Shown here: one piece after another, positions 11,604-18,215 of the stretch
How the letters are laid out: each line of letters starts with the position of its first letter
How positions within the stretch are numbered: position 1 is the first letter of the stretch
Source: Patescibacteria group bacterium
GTDB taxonomy: Bacteria > Patescibacteriota > Minisyncoccia > UBA6257 > 1-14-0-10-40-38
Direction: 5' to 3'
Assembly (NCBI GenBank): GCA_038064975.1
Contig: JBBTRX010000007.1
Location: forward strand, 1 to 57,025
DNA: 57,025 bases
The notes under the pieces: generated by a model
The model's database searches: none
The model's input: the letters and a program-made list of their open reading frames with translations, nothing else
Told to the model about the DNA's origin: nothing
Made by a program: the position numbers and the translations under genes

Positions 11604-11702
11604 AAATAACGAATGCAGTCTATCAGAGTTTGAGAGACAAAACAAAAACCCCGCAAAGCTTTATAAAAGCGAAGCGGGGTTTGAAAACCATCTTTAGTTT
11701 TC

Positions 11703-12151: not shown

Positions 12152-12226
12152 TGGAGCCGGAGGTGAGAATCGAACTCACGGCCTGCTGTTTACGAAACAG
12201 CTGCTCTGCCCCTGAGCTACTCCGGC
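12152..12226 (-). tRNA. tRNA-Thr(CGT)
   Basis: gccggagtagctcagg...gctgt-ttCGTaa-acagc...gttcgattc...ctccggctCCA cloverleaf. Confidence 0.95.
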
Positions 12227-12389: not shown

Positions 12390-12698
12390 ATGTCTGAAGT
12401 CGATCCGTACGATCTTGATGGCACTGAGTATGCTCGTATTCTTCGTGAAGAGAATAAAGACCCTCTCAAAGATTCTGTTGATGAGGGTCCTCATCCGCTC
12501 CTTGAGCGAGATGCTCTCGTTGCAGACCTCATGGATCATCTCAATGAGTTCGAGAAAGATCTCAATAGTCGCCGATATCCAGAAGGCCGGTGGCGGACAG
12601 ATTCTTATCACGAATTTGATGAAGGATTTCTCTTGCGCCGAGAAATCTTGATCGCTGAAGTCTTGCGCTTCATTCACGAAGGAAGCAAAACTGTCTGA
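12390..12698 (+). CDS. Acidic hypothetical protein (102 aa)
   Basis: GGAGGAG RBS; downstream gcgcgct...agcgcgc-T6 terminator. Confidence 0.65.
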   Translation: MSEVDPYDLDGTEYARILREENKDPLKDSVDEGPHPLLERDALVADLMDHLNEFEKDLNSRRYPEGRWRTDSYHEFDEGFLLRREILIAEVLRFIHEGSKTV

Positions 12699-12772
12699 TG
12701 CCCCCGCGCGCTCTTCGCCTGAACAGCGCGCTTTTTTATATCCATTACTTAAATAAAGAACTACGTCAGACT

Positions 12773-12796
12773 CGTGAGCAGAATACGGGAATCCAA
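12773..12796 (-). pseudogene. Inverted partial duplicate of the tRNA-Gly 3' end
   Basis: cgtgagcagaatacgggaatccaa matches the reverse complement of 17596-17619 at 22/24 positions. Confidence 0.8.
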
Positions 12797-12831
12797 TATA
12801 GTTTGGTCCATAACAATTTTGCGGATGATGA

Positions 12832-12960
12832 GTATGTTTACGACTTCATTCGAACTTACTTTATAGTGAACTAGTCGAATCCACTTTATCAAAAATTCCT
12901 GGCTAAAAAAAGCCGCGCCGCGGAGGCACGGCTTCATCCTTTCGAAAAAAACAGAGATGG
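12832..12960 (+). repeat. Left arm of ~125-bp inverted repeat
   Basis: Reverse complement of 17412-17532, including a perfect 42-bp block aatccactttatcaaaaattcctggctaaaaaaagccgcgcc. Confidence 0.92.
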
Positions 12961-12961
12961 A

Positions 12962-14014
12962 TTATCCAAAAGTAAACGTAAACGCTTTGAGTCCGGGCTT
13001 TTGAATTTTCAGTTCAAGCGTGTTGGTTTCTGATTGATTGCCTTGAATAATTTTATAAAGGCGTGCTTCTTTTATCTTTAACACAGTCTTACCATCTAAA
13101 GTTCTAACAATATCCGACCCGGCTTCAAGTCCAAGCGGTTCTCCATCGCGGAGAACTTCTACAACTATTTCAGTGTCCGATTCCGCGACAAAGAAAACGT
13201 CCTTTGCAGTGTATTGATATATGATTCTTGCATCAGATGCAACGTTTTGAGCAAATTCAGGTGTTACATCCCAGCCATTGCTTGGAAAAAGGAAGTCTTT
13301 CTCGTTGGGTTCGCGTGCCGATCCAAAATATACCTCAGGGCTTCTTACACCACCCTGAACAGGGATTTCTTTGGTTATTGACTGATCTATTGTCCCGCTC
13401 TCCCCTAATACCGCCATTCTTTCGGCGAGCGCGTCCTGAATTTTTTGCTCCGTTTCTTCATAGCCACCTTCCCCGATATGGTCGTATACCACATAGCCAT
13501 CAATATCTATCAAGTACTTTCTCGGCCAGAATCGGTTCTGGTACGCATTCCATGTTGAATAGTCGTTATCAAGGACTACCGGATACTTGATCTCCAGTCT
13601 CTTCGTCGCTTCAAGAACATTTTGGTAAACCTTCTCAAACTCAAACTCCGGAGTATGAAGCCCGATAATAACAAGCCCCTTGTCTTTATATTTTTCATGC
13701 CACGCGTTTAAATACGGTGTCGTGCGCTGGCAATTAATACAAGAATAAGTCCAAATATCGAGGAGCACGACTTTTTTTCCGACAAATTCACCTATAGTGA
13801 CAGGGTTCCCGTCTGTATTGATGAAATCGTTGGGGGTCGTAATCTCTTTTGCAACAGAATAAAGCTTCGCTTTTTCTTCTTTACCTATCGTTGTTTTTAC
13901 ATCTACTTTTCCGCCGATTGTGTTGCGAGAAACTTTTTGCGAATTGAGATAGAAAATTCCACCGACAACGAGAATAGTGAGCAGTCCGAAGCTCATTATT
14001 TTTTGAGGGGACAT
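12962..14014 (-). CDS. Membrane-anchored redoxin, DipZ C-terminal-like thioredoxin protein
   Basis: 'WTYSCINC', 'IIGLHTPEFEFEK', 'WPRKYLID', C-terminal 'AFTFTFG'. Likely start is ATG 14014. Confidence 0.88.
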   Translation of the reverse strand: MSPQKIMSFGLLTILVVGGIFYLNSQKVSRNTIGGKVDVKTTIGKEEKAKLYSVAKEITTPNDFINTDGNPVTIGEFVGKKVVLLDIWTYSCINCQRTTPYLNAWHEKYKDKGLVIIGLHTPEFEFEKVYQNVLEATKRLEIKYPVVLDNDYSTWNAYQNRFWPRKYLIDIDGYVVYDHIGEGGYEETEQKIQDALAERMAVLGESGTIDQSITKEIPVQGGVRSPEVYFGSAREPNEKDFLFPSNGWDVTPEFAQNVASDARIIYQYTAKDVFFVAESDTEIVVEVLRDGEPLGLEAGSDIVRTLDGKTVLKIKEARLYKIIQGNQSETNTLELKIQKPGLKAFTFTFG

Positions 14015-14015
14015 A

Positions 14016-14798
14016 TTAAGCAAGCGTTTCTTTCTTAACAGCGGTTGAGGCAAGATAAGAAAGAAACCCGGGGATAAGCGGCAAAATGCAGGGACTTAAA
14101 AATGATCCGACTCCGGCAAGAAAAGAAACGCCGAAGTTAAAGATGGTAAGTGAGCTGATACCGCCACCAATTGATGTCGTTAAATTCAGAGCGAGAAGAA
14201 TATCTGTCAGGAATTGGAGATTCGCAACACGAGAGAGAGTTCCGGTAAAGACCAAAACACCCAGTGCGATAAGAATAACGCCGAAGAAATACTGGAAGTA
14301 GAGAAGTTTCTTGCCTAAGCGATTGATAAGCGCTTGCGCTTGGTTCGTGAAAAGCCCAACGAGAAGGAACGGGATTCCGAGCCCAAGCGTGTAGGCGACG
14401 AGAAGCAAAAATGCACTTCCAGCCGATGTTGTTGCGAGTGCCAAAATTGCGCCAAGCGCCGCAGAAACGCACGGGGTCCACCCCACGGCGAATGCCGCAC
14501 CAAAAACAAAAGAGGTAAGATAGTGGGAACGAAACCGACGCTTGACGAGAATCTTATGATCCGTCTTTAGGAACGCCGGAGTGAATAAGCCGAGTAAAAA
14601 AAATCCGAATAGAATAATAATAACGCCACCGAGTCTACCCAACCATTCTTGAACAGTGTAGGATGCGCTTGAAAGAACCGTCTGCAGGAGCACTCCAACA
14701 AGAGAGAACACCAGCGAGAAGCCAAGTACAAAGAAAACGCTTGAGAAGAAGATACTCCAATCGCGCGTAGGTTTTTCAGAAGATACGACTTGATTCAT
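14016..14798 (-). CDS. ccdA: CcdA/DsbD-beta family thiol-disulfide transporter, circularly permuted
   Basis: 'FAVGWTPCV' in the middle and 'FLAGVGSFLSPCILPLIPGFLSYL' at the C-terminus. Confidence 0.85.
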   Translation of the reverse strand: MNQVVSSEKPTRDWSIFFSSVFFVLGFSLVFSLVGVLLQTVLSSASYTVQEWLGRLGGVIIILFGFFLLGLFTPAFLKTDHKILVKRRFRSHYLTSFVFGAAFAVGWTPCVSAALGAILALATTSAGSAFLLLVAYTLGLGIPFLLVGLFTNQAQALINRLGKKLLYFQYFFGVILIALGVLVFTGTLSRVANLQFLTDILLALNLTTSIGGGISSLTIFNFGVSFLAGVGSFLSPCILPLIPGFLSYLASTAVKKETLA

Positions 14799-14810
14799 AG
14801 GTTCTATTTT

Positions 14811-15530
14811 TTATTGAGCGATTACTTTGTTTATCTCATTAAGATAGCGTGCCTTGTCCCATTGATCTGGCGCCTTGAGTAATTGTTTTCCGTTCTTCAC
14901 AAACACTTTTGTGTGCTGATAAGGAATGCCATATTTAACCGCCAGAGCTTTCTCGTCACTATCGGTGTCGCTATCTTTGTAATTAATGCGAATCCCTACC
15001 ACGTTGTCAGTCGTTAATTCGTTAAACGCAGGATACAAGGCGTTTGCCACCTCCGTCTTACAAGTCGGGCACCAGTTGGCATAGAAATAAAGAACCACAA
15101 GTTTGTCGGTTTTTATTGCTGCGTCGTAATCCGCTTTTGTAAAATCAAGAAGAGGCGCGGATTTTCCGGCAAGAACCATTCCTGTATATTTCGTCATCAT
15201 TGCTCCCTCCTCTTTTTTCATCGTTTCTCCCGCTTTCTTTTCCATCGTACCGTCTGGGTTTACCATAGTGCCATCAGGTTTAACCATGGTCCCATCGGGT
15301 TTCACCATCGTACCGTCTGGCTTTACCATAGTACCGTCAGCTTTTACAACTGTGCCGTCCTCTAATGTTTTTTCATTTGCTGGCGACTGTGCTGTTTGTG
15401 ATTGGTTGCGCGTAGCGAAATAAGAAATTCCGCCGATCACCACAACTAATGCAATTATTGCGATAATCATAGGCATCGCAAACCCCTGCCTGCCGGCAGA
15501 CATGGCTTTTTGTGAATTGTTGTTTGTCAT
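14811..15530 (-). CDS. Membrane-anchored thioredoxin-family protein with DGTMVKP tandem repeats
   Basis: 'FYANWCPTC'; N-terminal TM; 21-nt repeat array around 15240-15360. Confidence 0.85.
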   Translation of the reverse strand: MTNNNSQKAMSAGRQGFAMPMIIAIIALVVVIGGISYFATRNQSQTAQSPANEKTLEDGTVVKADGTMVKPDGTMVKPDGTMVKPDGTMVNPDGTMEKKAGETMKKEEGAMMTKYTGMVLAGKSAPLLDFTKADYDAAIKTDKLVVLYFYANWCPTCKTEVANALYPAFNELTTDNVVGIRINYKDSDTDSDEKALAVKYGIPYQHTKVFVKNGKQLLKAPDQWDKARYLNEINKVIAQ

Positions 15531-15545
15531 ATATTTTTTCGTTAA

Positions 15546-16400
15546 TTACGGATTCACAACGAACCAGACACCATTGACGTCCTGTCCTGTAGTGTCACCT
15601 GCCTTCATATCTTTAGACCAGAAATAAAGTGGTGCACCATTGTAGGTCGCCTGAATGGTCCCGTCTGCACGAGTAATTGTTCCAACTGCACCAGTCACTC
15701 CGGCTCCCGCAGAAATAGTCGCTCCCGCAGAAACGTTATATGCTGGCCATTTCGCGATGCAATCCCCCGCGCAGTTACTTACACCCGCACTGTCCTTTGT
15801 GAAGCGATACAATGTCATGCCATCTCCAGCAACGAGATATGTACCGATCTTTGAAGATGCTGAAACAACAGTATTTAAAGCGATAACATCGTGTGCCTTC
15901 TTTGACATCATCATTCCCTCGTCCTTTTTCATCATACTGTCTCCTTTGTTCATCATCGCCCCGTCTTTTTTCTGCATCATTACCTTCATCGCAGCGCGGG
16001 TTAGCGGACCGTAGTAGCCCGTCGACTTCACGCCGAGCATGGTCTGATGCTTCATCACCGCTGCTTTCGTAAGCGGGCCGAAATATCCCTTCGCGACTCC
16101 GGCGGGAATCATGAGAAGCCCCTTCTCTTCAAGGAGCATCTGGAGGGTCACGACTTTGTCACCGCGCGATCCGAAAAACAAATCCTCTTCGTGGGTCATG
16201 GTATCGCCCGACATCACGGCGTCTTTTTTCATCATTGAGTCGCCTGTACCCGTCATTGTATCTTTCTGCGTCATTGAGTCACTTTTCTTCATCATGGAAT
16301 CGCCCGTTGTTTCCACCGCAAAAACGCTTCCTGCTACAGCAAACATTGCAACCAACGCGAAGGTCGTCGCGCCAATTTTCAAATTCATTGTGTTGTTCAT
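15546..16400 (-). CDS. Secreted Met-rich protein with peptidoglycan-binding domain and COG4315-type Yx(F/W)xxD repeats
   Basis: 'GSRGDKVVTLQ..GYFGPLTKAAV'; 'GMTLYRFTKD..C...C...WP'; 'PLYFWSKD..GDTTGQ'. Confidence 0.8.
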   Translation of the reverse strand: MNNTMNLKIGATTFALVAMFAVAGSVFAVETTGDSMMKKSDSMTQKDTMTGTGDSMMKKDAVMSGDTMTHEEDLFFGSRGDKVVTLQMLLEEKGLLMIPAGVAKGYFGPLTKAAVMKHQTMLGVKSTGYYGPLTRAAMKVMMQKKDGAMMNKGDSMMKKDEGMMMSKKAHDVIALNTVVSASSKIGTYLVAGDGMTLYRFTKDSAGVSNCAGDCIAKWPAYNVSAGATISAGAGVTGAVGTITRADGTIQATYNGAPLYFWSKDMKAGDTTGQDVNGVWFVVNP

Positions 16401-16480
16401 ATAATTATTTTCTATTTTACTAAAAAAATATATTACTATATTCTCGACTACTTGCTTAATGATATGCCCTCATAAAAATG

Positions 16481-16501
16481 ATGTCAAGTATACTTTACAT
16501 A
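16481..16501 (-). promoter_or_regulatory. Putative XRE operator overlapping the -35 of a TTGACA-17-TATCAT promoter
   Basis: atgtcaagtatactttacata; near-identical to 17389-17409. Confidence 0.65.
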
Positions 16502-16517
16502 GCTATTGTGCATAACC

Positions 16518-16763
16518 CTACTTTACTAATGCATTATCCAGTTTTTGTTTATCAAATCCTAAAATAGAAATTTTGGATCCGTCGTCTTTCGTAATTACGG
16601 TAAACGGTACTCCCATCTGCCCGGACTCGGCAATCATTTCTTGAACAGCCTTTGGGTCTTTATCAACATAGATTTCTTCAAATGTAATTCCTTTTGATTG
16701 CAGGTACTCCGCTTCCATTTTGCAGTAAGGGCAAGTTGTTGTTTTATATATTTTAATTGTCAT
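16518..16763 (-). CDS. Glutaredoxin (NrdH/YruB-like)
   Basis: 'TTTCPYC', 'SGQMGVP', 'LGFD'. Confidence 0.9.
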   Translation of the reverse strand: MTIKIYKTTTCPYCKMEAEYLQSKGITFEEIYVDKDPKAVQEMIAESGQMGVPFTVITKDDGSKISILGFDKQKLDNALVK

Positions 16764-16775
16764 GGACGTTTTAAT

Positions 16776-17141
16776 TTAGTTGCTAATCCGACCATAGATA
16801 AGAGTAATAATTTTTGCTACGATCATTCCAGAGAGAACGAATACAAGCCACGGATCAAGATTATGATCGAAGCTTTGGACAATAATACCGAGTGTGAGTA
16901 GCGCAGTACCGACAAGAAATGCAATACGACCAGCCATCATTTTGTGAAGTCCCTCCCGTTCGTCTCTATGATTTTCCCTCCATACAAAACTCGCAAAAAA
17001 CGCAAAGACTACGACAAGTCCCAAAACCATCATCATGAGGAGCGCAGTCGGCATCCAAAAACCAAATGGATTGAGGAAAAGGATGAGTAGAATAATGAGT
17101 ATTCCGGAAATTGAGACTTCTTGTAGTAGATTATTTTTCAT
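16776..17141 (-). CDS. 4-TM membrane protein (DUF2178-like), partner of XRE regulator
   Basis: 'DERE' motif between TM pairs; overlaps the HTH gene. Confidence 0.7.
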
Positions 17142-17343
17142 ATTTTATTTGGAAAATATCCTCAACTGATTTTTTGAAAAATTTAGCTATTTTCAAGGCT
17201 AAAGTGATTGACGGAGTATAATTTCCTTTCTCAATGGCGATAATCGTCTGACGGGTTACTCCAACCGCTTCGGCCAACGCCTCTTGGGTAATATCAGATT
17301 TTGTCCGTAACTCGTAGACTTGGTTCTTGATGATTTCCTTCAT
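17131..17343 (-). CDS. XRE/Cro-C1 HTH transcriptional regulator
   Basis: '[38 protein letters not shown]'. Confidence 0.93.
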
Positions 17344-17388
17344 AATTCATATATCTGATATATTTCAGTATAGTGTCTGGGAATTCGA

Positions 17389-17409
17389 ATGTCAAATTAA
17401 CTTTACATA
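17389..17409 (-). promoter_or_regulatory. Putative XRE operator overlapping the -35 of a TTGACA-17-TATACT promoter
   Basis: atgtcaaattaactttacata upstream of the HTH gene. Confidence 0.65.
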
Positions 17410-17411
17410 AC

Positions 17412-17532
17412 CCATCTCTGTTTTTTTGAAAGAGTGAAGCCGGGGGCGCGGCTTTTTTTAGCCAGGAATTTTTGATAAAGTGGATTAGACTAGTTCACTA
17501 TAAAATAAGTTTGAGCACAGTCGTAAATATAC
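17412..17532 (-). repeat. Right arm of ~125-bp inverted repeat
   Basis: Reverse complement of 12832-12960; ends 12 nt before tRNA-Gly. Confidence 0.92.
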
Positions 17533-17544
17533 CCCAGTTTTGTT

Positions 17545-17615
17545 GCGGAATTAGTACAGTGGTAGTACGATAGCTTCCCAAGCTATAGACGCGGGTTCGA
17601 TTCCCGTATTCCGCT
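17545..17615 (+). tRNA. tRNA-Gly(CCC), CCA not encoded
   Basis: gcggaattagtacagtggt...atagc-ttCCCaa-gctat...ggttcgattcccgtattccgct. Confidence 0.95.
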
Positions 17616-17627
17616 CACGGATTAGAT

Positions 17628-18215
17628 CTACTTCCGAAAAACTATCTGTTCCCCGTTCCAGGTAAGCACGGGGTCAAGGATATAGATTTTAGCGTTTTTT
17701 CTTGTTTCAGCAAGCCAGGCAAGATATGCATCTTGCGTTTCAAACGCCTCCCCCGCCACGATCTCCTCGCGCGCCTGGGGAATAAGAACAAAAGTTTTGA
17801 ATTGATTGAGGGGAACGCCATAGAGCTCCTGAACTGCGTTTTCTAAATCTGGATTTTCCTGTTCCAAGGTCGCGATGCGATCCATAACGCGCTCGTCAAA
17901 ATCTGCTTTTTTTATTTCCTGGAATTTATTCAAGAGCAATTCGTTTTCAACAAGCTTATCTAACGTAACGCGCCGCACCTCGTGCCGGTTCACTTTATTT
18001 ACATCCTCTTCGCTTGCTCCAAAGAATTGTCCTGCTTGCGTATAGTAATGGAAAATTGACGTGCTCGTTTGTTCAAAACGGGATGCGCCTACTAATTTAC
18101 CGTTCACAATCGCGACAGGATACCATCCTTTTTGGATCGCAATATGCACGCCAATGCCGCACACCACCATCGCGAGAAAGAAAATGAGTAAAGGAATTCT
18201 TTTCATATTATTCAT
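17628..18215 (-). CDS. SurA N-terminal-like membrane-anchored chaperone domain protein
   Basis: TM then 'VAIVNG', 'TLDKLVENELL', 'QELYG'. Confidence 0.65.
   Translation of the reverse strand: MNNMKRIPLLIFFLAMVVCGIGVHIAIQKGWYPVAIVNGKLVGASRFEQTSTSIFHYYTQAGQFFGASEEDVNKVNRHEVRRVTLDKLVENELLLNKFQEIKKADFDERVMDRIATLEQENPDLENAVQELYGVPLNQFKTFVLIPQAREEIVAGEAFETQDAYLAWLAETRKNAKIYILDPVLTWNGEQIVFRK

Follow-up and report, generated by a model that had tools for sequence, protein, structure and literature searches.

How does a seven-gene redox operon come to lie between two long inverted repeats, with an intact tRNA-Gly gene outside one of them and an inverted copy of that gene outside the other? The question is raised by positions 12832-17532 of a 57,025-nucleotide (nt) stretch of DNA from a Patescibacteria group bacterium (positions 1 to 57,025 of contig JBBTRX010000007.1, assembly GCA_038064975.1), which is referred to here as the window. 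The genomes of the Patescibacteria, or Candidate Phyla Radiation (CPR), are very small and are considered to contain few classical mobile elements; their accessory genes nonetheless turn over. The answer we favour, with moderate confidence, is that 12832-17532 is a non-autonomous cargo cassette, acquired horizontally and lodged in a hotspot spacer between a SurA-like gene and tRNA-Gly(ccc). A cargo element of this kind was among the candidates of an earlier note on this DNA and is now well supported: the cassette recurs with its arms in another family at an identity far above that of a housekeeping gene, and inward-facing pairs of the arms' conserved core, at least 11 in number, enclose cargo of unrelated kinds. 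In what follows G, C and L numbers are our handles for genomes, contigs and loci.

The two arms, 12832-12975 and 17397-17532, are inverted repeats that are 85-91% identical. A repeat search returned their outer parts (12832-12919 and 17445-17532; 88 nt, 91% complementary) and inner parts (12945-12975 and 17397-17427; 31 nt, 84% complementary) separately, BLAST within the bacterium's own genome joined 12832-12965 to 17407-17532 at 85%, and in a pairwise alignment the longest run of identity was 42 nt. The inverted arrangement and the perfect 42-bp core described in the earlier note are thereby confirmed. Each arm contains a conserved core, termed M below, that reads inward towards the cargo. 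The features of the arms and of their immediate surroundings are as follows.

12775-12822, minus strand: decayed copy of tRNA-Gly(ccc), 48 nt, with internal deletions of 17 and 8 nt (pairwise alignment)
12832-12975, plus strand: left arm, with its M core at 12837-12864 reading inward
12865-12889: internal 25-nt duplication of the left arm
12890-12902: CAAAAATTCCTGG of the left arm
about 12905-12932: hairpin of the left arm, the predicted terminator of the cassette operon
12945-12975: inner edge of the left arm, overlapping the final codons of the last cargo gene, which encodes 363 amino acids (aa)
17397-17532, minus strand: right arm, with its M core at 17500-17527 (inward on the minus strand), the 25-nt duplication as in the left arm and a shortened hairpin
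17545-17616, plus strand: intact tRNA-Gly(ccc) (ARAGORN; Rfam, 73 bits)

The intact tRNA gene is the sole tRNA-Gly(ccc) of the genome; 17 nt separate it from the right arm, and the SurA-like stop codon is 11 nt away. BLAST also returned the inverted match of its 3' end outside the left arm (12773-12796; 22/24, 92%), as had been claimed, and alignment extended this copy to the whole length of the tRNA. The decayed copy has the ancestral orientation, retains acceptor, anticodon-loop and T-loop remnants, and begins, at its 5' end, 14 nt outside the left arm; neither ARAGORN nor Rfam called a tRNA at 12775-12822. A weaker similarity runs for about 19 nt beyond the tRNA, which brings the matched segments to 12758-12796 and 17596-17634 (77%). 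Two further details of the earlier description were checked on the arms themselves. The short, similar peptide tails read from both arms are correctly translated; the last cargo gene, rather than stopping at the inner edge of the left arm, ends inside it, with its last 4-5 codons within the repeat.

A high-copy dispersed repeat would have been a trivial explanation and does not apply, there being only two copies of the arm in the 782-kb, 98%-complete genome (BLAST). Relative to the copy on contig G400:C33, from another family, both arms carry the 25-nt insertion and lack about 230 nt; because these derived characters are common to both, the arms appear to exchange sequence. Private differences are nevertheless present in each arm. 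The arms and four related loci had no Rfam match at an expectation value (E) of up to 1, a threshold at which the window yielded two tRNAs and a chance hit to a CRISPR-DR family on a terminator; the latter is a weak CRISPR-DR10 match (21.7 bits, E 0.31) at 11636-11687, on a palindromic terminator-like hairpin after prfB.

It could be objected that the inverted arrangement is an artefact of assembly, due to a chimeric join or to the collapse of a repeat, since repeats of the M family often end contigs and de Bruijn contigs break within the core. We consider this very improbable. In contigs of two independent studies each arm is fixed to its own flank with 0 differences, so that both arm-flank joints are reproduced; the arms have their private differences; and the architecture recurs in at least 10 other genomes. 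The contigs of both studies end inside the 42-nt core, leaving the orientation of the inner segment unphased; no strand-switching joints were found in them, a negative that is limited by the same inability of contigs ending within the core to phase the repeat. The contig skips listed had short sides or came from other organisms at 90% likeness.

The locus itself is an island hotspot of this family. Two resident genes frame it.

12152-12226, minus strand: tRNA-Thr(cgt), left flank (ARAGORN, Rfam)
17628-18215, minus strand: SurA-N-like gene, right flank (Pfam; synteny)

In all eight family relatives the SurA-like gene is followed on one strand by tRNA-Gly(ccc), and next come tRNA-Thr(cgt) and prfB; prfB is co-oriented in all of them, tRNA-Thr in seven of the eight, with G002 having it inverted. 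The gap between the two tRNA genes is 1-107 nt in three relatives, and in the other five islands of 2-10 kb lie in or beside the tRNA pair. M is absent from this locus in all eight, and relative to every one of them the intact tRNA-Gly of the window is inverted. One relative (L068; G004:C15:185000-196600) has, without any copy of M, an island of 6.7 kb separating tRNA-Gly from tRNA-Thr as well as a CcdA-like gene between tRNA-Thr and prfB; redox genes therefore reach this hotspot by more than one route. Beside tRNA-Thr the window also holds a 102-aa open reading frame (12390-12698) that has no Pfam match and by eye resembles a 124-aa frame that occupies the same position in a relative (L065:1960-2334, G007); it is probably a resident hotspot gene, not cargo.

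These comparisons suggest how the present arrangement might have arisen. The cassette would first have inserted between the SurA-like gene and tRNA-Gly, which are separated by a short spacer; gene conversion between the arms would then have spread the repeat outward over tRNA-Gly, placing an inverted copy of it beside the SurA-like gene; and one of the two redundant tRNA copies, the original, would have decayed. The inverted tRNA copy is better read as the result of a repeat that spread over a neighbouring tRNA than as an integration scar; the repeats bounding two other M pairs (G241 and G260) likewise include flanking host sequence.

The horizontal origin of the cassette is best judged from its genes, seven in number and all on the minus strand.

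17131-17343, minus strand: HTH_3 (XRE-type) regulator, 70 aa, the first cassette gene (Pfam)
16776-17141, minus strand: membrane protein of 121 aa (Mem121) without a clear family (sub-threshold Pfam matches only)
16518-16763, minus strand: glutaredoxin/NrdH-like protein, 81 aa (Grx81; Pfam)
15546-16400, minus strand: exported protein, 284 aa, with PG_binding_1 and two Lipoprotein_15 repeats (Pfam)
14811-15530, minus strand: thioredoxin, 239 aa (Trx239), secreted or anchored, with 21-nt tandem repeats (PDGTMVK units; Pfam)
14016-14798, minus strand: CcdA/DsbD-type transmembrane thiol-disulfide electron transporter, 260 aa (Pfam DsbD_TM)
12962-14053, minus strand: TlpA/Redoxin protein (Tlp), 363 aa, membrane-anchored, with a C-terminal Thioredoxin_10 domain (Pfam), the last cargo gene

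The best relatives of the 363-aa protein lie outside the family and are 70-87% identical to it. On G400:C33, a 7-kb contig, five cassette genes stand in matching order, with amino-acid identities of 88% (Mem121), 94% (Grx81), 89% (CcdA), 69% (Trx239) and 67-75% (Tlp) and a DNA identity of 75-82% across nearly the entire cassette; between the two genomes LepA has an identity of 53%. That contig carries M at one end and the mirror image of the inner repeat at the other. The inner edges of the repeat, which take in the final Tlp codons on one side and a degenerate version of them on the other, are common to both genomes; the cassette and both arms therefore travelled together. In a third genome (G216:C1) M adjoins a Tlp homologue in a different flank, beside a 398-aa gene. 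Judged from these sequence comparisons, the redox cassette has clearly been transferred horizontally. They also make it unlikely that two element ends were fused head-to-head, another candidate of the earlier note, as a coherent seven-gene unit, with promoters and a terminator of its own, fills the space between the arms and recurs with both of them.

What travels with the cassette can be narrowed down further. When the left arm was compared with related genomes by BLAST, only a core piece of about 36 nt was matched, in four genomes of other genera, one of which holds it as an inverted pair, perfect over 49 nt, with 4.1 kb between the copies. This core, M, is a conserved block of about 50 nt: tgGAGTaTc-TTTAcGAcT.CGCTCGAACcTAcTTTAT-CAAAAATTccTgA. 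A degenerate pattern of it, allowed up to 3 mismatches, matches 34 of the order's 401 genomes, in 1-3 copies each and often within a few hundred bases of a contig end, while a reversed control pattern gave 0 matches in the same 401 genomes. An exact-pattern scan of GTDB species genomes placed it in at least 120 contigs, mostly labelled Patescibacteria or CPR, with some 'TPA_asm' records labelled otherwise; the 120 GTDB loci referred to below are the matches listed in that scan. M often adjoins tRNA genes. Across 149 distinct instances conservation spans -8 to +41 around a 28-nt core and falls to about 0 bits of information on both sides: the sequence upstream is not conserved, and beyond +41 there follow GC-rich hairpins in mosaic arrangement, whose sequences change from copy to copy while pairing is kept by compensatory changes. 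The 25-nt duplication is seen also in G195, at the same tRNA-Gly/SurA locus as in the window.

Two properties of M bear on its function. Read outward, it resembles the 3' half of a tRNA (GTTCGA, about 17 nt, CTCCA; tRNAs have about 13 nt in between). Read inward from position -7, it contains a frame, ..E(Y/C/W)(L/I)YDxARTYFIKNS, that in 163 instances stops exactly at the end of the conserved block.

Several identities were tried for M and set aside. As a coding sequence it has the conserved frame, yet the longest upstream frames in the 163 instances are mutually unrelated. As a structured RNA, its core gave mutual information of at most 0.22 bits and a single 4-bp helix (U-G to U-A/C-G), which is too weak. 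A scan of the arms for sigma-70-like sites passed none, which speaks against a promoter; the transfer-messenger RNA gene of this genome lies on another contig (C2); and exact matches in IMG/VR numbered 0, giving a viral origin no support. An intron-containing or split tRNA was also considered, and ARAGORN run with introns gave mostly implausible calls. Among these calls is a tRNA-Arg at L018:6607-6892 (G003:C77), with an intron of 213 nt and a 3' end that adjoins M directly; a T-arm and an acceptor end can be made out by eye, but the call is uncertain.

A different view of these data is that M belongs to the host, as a terminator-plus-leader or small structured RNA at operon boundaries that became paired through local duplication. 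The GC-rich hairpins with compensatory changes that follow M would fit such a module, as would the terminators of upstream genes that frequently abut it (the left-arm hairpin being the predicted terminator of the cassette operon) and an extended -10 box ahead of M, upstream of a gene, in G009. We nonetheless find it unlikely, given that just 34 of 401 genomes carry M and eight relatives lack it at this locus; that M takes no preferred direction relative to the genes beside it (61 co-directional and 67 opposite upstream; 37 and 54 downstream); that the arms contain no scored sigma-70-like promoter and no Rfam match at the threshold given above; that the sequence upstream of M is not conserved; and that a near-identical block with high-identity cargo in distant families argues for transfer.

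The geometry was examined for M copies lying within about 6 kb of each other. Inward-facing pairs were found in the scan of the order (G000, G003, G054, G192, G241, G260 and G400:C15) and among the GTDB loci (L126, L138, L156 and L195; three further loci, duplicates of G241, G054 and G192, were merged by eye), and G400:C33 adds one more by its contig-end repeat. Inward pairs thus number at least 11, against 9 direct and 0 outward. The enclosed cargo is unrelated from pair to pair and includes an ApaLI-type restriction-modification system, a cysteinyl-tRNA synthetase with a methyltransferase, DUF6282 with TrpR, an N6-methylase fusion and proteins of unknown family; in G372 the pair surrounds just 236 nt. 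The synthetase gene lies in the pair at L056:2341-3750 (G400:C15), together with the methyltransferase and a pyridoxal phosphate (PLP)-decarboxylase-like gene. No direct target duplications flank the 11 pairs, no transposase lies between M copies in the cargo sets examined, and an autonomous transposase bounded by matching M ends was likewise not found. Five of seven pairs have repeats that reach outward as far as -4 to -11; the repeats of G241 and G260 run 34 and 44 nt into flanking terminator sequence, and that of the window covers the whole tRNA. M-bounded units behave as mobile cargo cassettes: patchy, sharply bounded, without target duplication, varied in cargo and never facing outward.

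The same geometry invites the proposal, also made in the earlier note, of an invertible segment, in which the arms would let the 4.5-kb cassette flip and so, for instance, switch expression of the cassette or of tRNA-Gly. The 85-91% identity of the arms, their 42-nt perfect core and the derived characters they have in common, which point to sequence exchange, are what such a switch would show, and in relatives a serine recombinase gene lies just outside one arm, as do gin, cin and pin beside their invertible segments. We regard the proposal as improbable all the same. With promoters and terminator inside the arms, a flip would leave expression of the cassette unchanged; the window has no adjacent recombinase; the M consensus lacks, by eye, a dyad symmetry of the hix/gix type; the contigs report no strand-switching joints, though they cannot show them across the 42-nt core; and direct pairs (9) come close in number to inverted ones.

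If the favoured reading, a cargo cassette without its own mobility genes, is right, a recombinase should be sought elsewhere. Pfam searches of the seven cargo genes and the flanking genes found no recombinase gene between or beside the arms, in agreement with the earlier note, while three large serine recombinase genes are present in the same genome, on contigs C2 and C3. Among the 120 GTDB loci ten, and in addition G054, G329 and G400:C15, have a recombinase gene that starts 200-335 nt from the outer edge of M and points away from it; its product has the Pfam domains Resolvase, Recombinase and Zn_ribbon_recom. The suggestion that the peptide tail is a remnant of an integrase 3' end finds no support in that form: the linked recombinase is transcribed away from M, and no long conserved reading frame precedes M in 163 instances.

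Homologues of the M-linked recombinase occur in 116 of the 401 genomes, and in 23 of 29 loci fetched a convergent tRNA gene, one of many different tRNAs, lies 17-219 nt past the end of the match. M-like sequence adjoins four of the five closest homologues (at least 65% identity, with enough upstream sequence), whereas about 12 more distant ones gave at most one weak case (7 mismatches, about 1.2 kb away). The recombinase gene stands between terminal inverted repeats of 114-138 nt (87-100%), one lying directly against the tRNA's CCA end and the other against M. Such single-gene elements of about 1.8 kb are seen at L086:172-2009 (G054:C2), L184:5102-6939, L147:108-1908 and L244:2714-4524. In nine of nine cases the M pentamer at -9 to -5 mirrors the terminus of the tRNA (TGGAG/CTCCA in seven, TGGTG/CACCA in two). 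Where tRNA and M meet without a recombinase, perfect mirror stems of 14-26 bp are present in 8 of 13 distinct junctions (shuffle maximum, 10), most of them spanning the last bases of the tRNA and the first bases of M (for example L054, L038, L044, L214, L131 and L107). The palindrome at L131 consists of the first 15 nt of the L161 recombinase repeat and its mirror. These junction palindromes may represent either footprints left by collapsed elements or attachment sites that are themselves palindromic. No convincing partial direct tRNA repeats were seen at the far ends of the recombinase-linked loci.

From these associations the mechanism that is most economical can be outlined. Circularisation of a cassette would join its outward-reading, tRNA-like M ends into a palindromic site, and the M-linked clade of serine recombinases would move such cassettes in trans to sites beside tRNA genes. 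Because no recombinase of the M-linked type is adjacent in the genome of the window, the cassette is probably immobile here unless a helper is present.

The main rival to this model of mobilisation in trans holds that M is only a target flank: recombinase mini-elements would insert at junctions between tRNA 3' ends and M, and the cassettes would move otherwise, for example by DNA uptake and homologous recombination. That the 114-138-nt repeats of the recombinase differ from M and abut it, that the tRNA-M palindromes resemble collapsed copies of those repeats (L131 compared with L161), and that repeats including host flanks fit homologous exchange are all consistent with such a division of labour. 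Homologous exchange, however, leaves the absence of outward pairs and the sharp outer edge of M unexplained, and likewise the arrival of the cassette at different loci (tRNA-Gly here, the 398-aa gene in G216); we give this rival a low probability.

Against the reading of a trans-mobilised cargo cassette there are a number of observations to be weighed. Neither an excised form nor a circular junction nor an empty site of the same species appeared in the contigs, which cannot phase the repeat. The gene-conversion history is a reconstruction, and the similarity past the tRNA amounts to only 13/19 nt. Trios of Trx, CcdA and Tlp genes occur without M in many genomes. Junctions in which the 5' end of the tRNA faces M, as in the window, number 14, compared with 20 that present the 3' end, so that the window departs from the canonical type. 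In the loci that bear a recombinase, the gene is outside the M pair; its terminal repeats differ from M, which may accordingly be a target flank and not a substrate; and the recombinase of the window's own genome that comes nearest to the M-linked clade has an identity of 38% to it. Within M, covariation is weak, internal dyad symmetry is absent from the 149-instance consensus (by eye, not computed), and variation in the ..EYLYDxARTYFIKNS* frame is mostly synonymous and concentrated at third codon positions, a pattern that a tRNA mimic leaves unexplained. The frame of M and the position of the recombinase outside the pairs fit poorly with the trans-mobilisation and the target-flank models alike.

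Read in the broadest terms, the evidence lends itself to a more speculative proposal, which we advance only tentatively: that CPR bacteria exchange cassettes through tRNA mimicry, in which cassettes with pseudo-tRNA 3' ends, joined as circles into a palindromic site that mimics two convergent tRNA tails, would be integrated and excised beside tRNA genes by the large serine recombinases of IS-like elements, providing a functional analogue of the integron for genomes of less than 1 Mb. On this proposal the conserved frame of M might point to an additional coding or decoding role.

Two promoter-like sites and a pair of short repeats accompany the cassette genes.

17367-17395, minus strand: cassette promoter-like site TTGACA-17-TATACT (11/12), just inside the right arm and ahead of the regulator
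16459-16487, minus strand: internal promoter-like site TTGACA-17-TATCAT (11/12), ahead of the lipoprotein gene and overlapping the 21-nt repeat copy at 16481-16501
16481-16501 and 17389-17409: 21-nt direct repeat (86%), one copy at each promoter-like site

Sigma-70-like sites in the region number 10 against 10.4 expected from shuffles, and since the count equals the shuffle expectation the cassette promoters are to be taken as consensus matches only. The 21-nt direct repeat is likely the operator for the XRE regulator of the cassette. From the predicted functions of its genes, the cassette would be a self-contained, self-regulated unit that reduces or isomerises disulfides outside the cytoplasm. 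The genome holds a paralogue of the TlpA-like gene elsewhere. Within the thioredoxin gene, five tandem 21-nt units at 15221-15359 encode the PDGTMVK repeats, a stretch that Pfam also matches to DUF6799.

M offers a searchable marker for the movement of accessory genes across CPR lineages, with cargo that so far comprises redox systems, restriction-modification, an aminoacyl-tRNA synthetase and methyltransferases. Its physical linkage to compact serine recombinase elements that target tRNA genes points to a mechanism amenable to in vitro tests on short DNA, and serine recombinases that recognise tRNA-like palindromic sites could be of interest to genome engineers. For annotation, M explains many CPR contig breaks, and in the window the intact tRNA-Gly is to be regarded as a relocated copy and the left copy as a pseudogene.

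How, then, does the cassette relate to systems already described? A search of full-text literature, with supplements and subscription journals outside its scope, returned nothing on the M motif and nothing on serine recombinase elements of CPR bacteria, those with long terminal repeats included, and M-bounded cassettes are apparently an undescribed, widespread family of CPR cargo modules. Each of the nearest analogues already described agrees with them in some features and departs from them in at least one that defines the analogue. The cassette is not a classical tRNA-targeting island, its tRNA-Gly copy being inverted and full-length and not a direct 3' fragment. It does have one trait expected of a cassette mobilised in trans, in that a bounded unit is found in an unrelated genome at an identity above that of the core gene LepA.

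Serine integrase elements insert without target duplication, their element-proximal half-sites are inverted copies, and the recombinase gene lies beside the attachment (att) site. The inverted arms of the window, the lack of target duplication and the Resolvase, Recombinase and Zn_ribbon_recom domains of the linked genes recall them, but the recombinase is not within the M unit and M is about twice the usual length of a half-site; we know of no described serine integrase with near-perfect terminal repeats of 114-138 nt. A recombinase of its own, the defining trait of an autonomous serine-recombinase element, is not encoded by the window cassette. Miniature inverted-repeat transposable elements, other elements with terminal inverted repeats and mobile insertion cassettes have terminal inverted repeats, no transposase, passenger genes and a patchy distribution. 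M cassettes agree with them in these respects and in contigs that break at the repeats, and differ in the lack of target duplication in 11 pairs, of an M-ended autonomous transposase and of high copy number (1-3 per genome). The Gin/Cin/Pin segments, which span a few kb, are flanked by inverted repeats and have a serine recombinase gene just beyond one of these, find a parallel in the related loci; here, however, the linked recombinase is of the large type and sits at tRNA 3' ends in 23 of 29 loci, and the cargo consists of whole operons with promoters of their own.

The tycheposons of Prochlorococcus offer a parallel, as cargo elements, remnants and tRNA pieces piled at tRNA hotspots of streamlined genomes, a minority of them with large serine recombinases; their sites are direct partial-tRNA repeats and a tyrosine integrase is present in 910 of 937 (bioRxiv 10.1101/2020.12.28.424599). 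M cassettes are unlike tycheposons in that their ends are inverted copies of a non-tRNA block, partial direct tRNA repeats were not found and most units have no recombinase.

A further likeness is to the pdif modules of Acinetobacter plasmids, which carry no recombinase and are bounded by 28-bp XerC/XerD sites with partial dyad symmetry that alternate in arrays, outward pairs included. Both kinds of unit lack a recombinase of their own, have short inverted sites and varied cargo, and presumably depend on a recombinase encoded elsewhere. M differs in being about 50 nt long, without dyad symmetry by eye, never outward-paired and linked to serine recombinases, not Xer; its 149-instance consensus matches the XerD arm at only 8/11 positions by eye, without the 28-bp dif layout. 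The nearest kind of element to the cassette of the window is the recombinase-less cargo module bounded by inverted, recombination-type sites.

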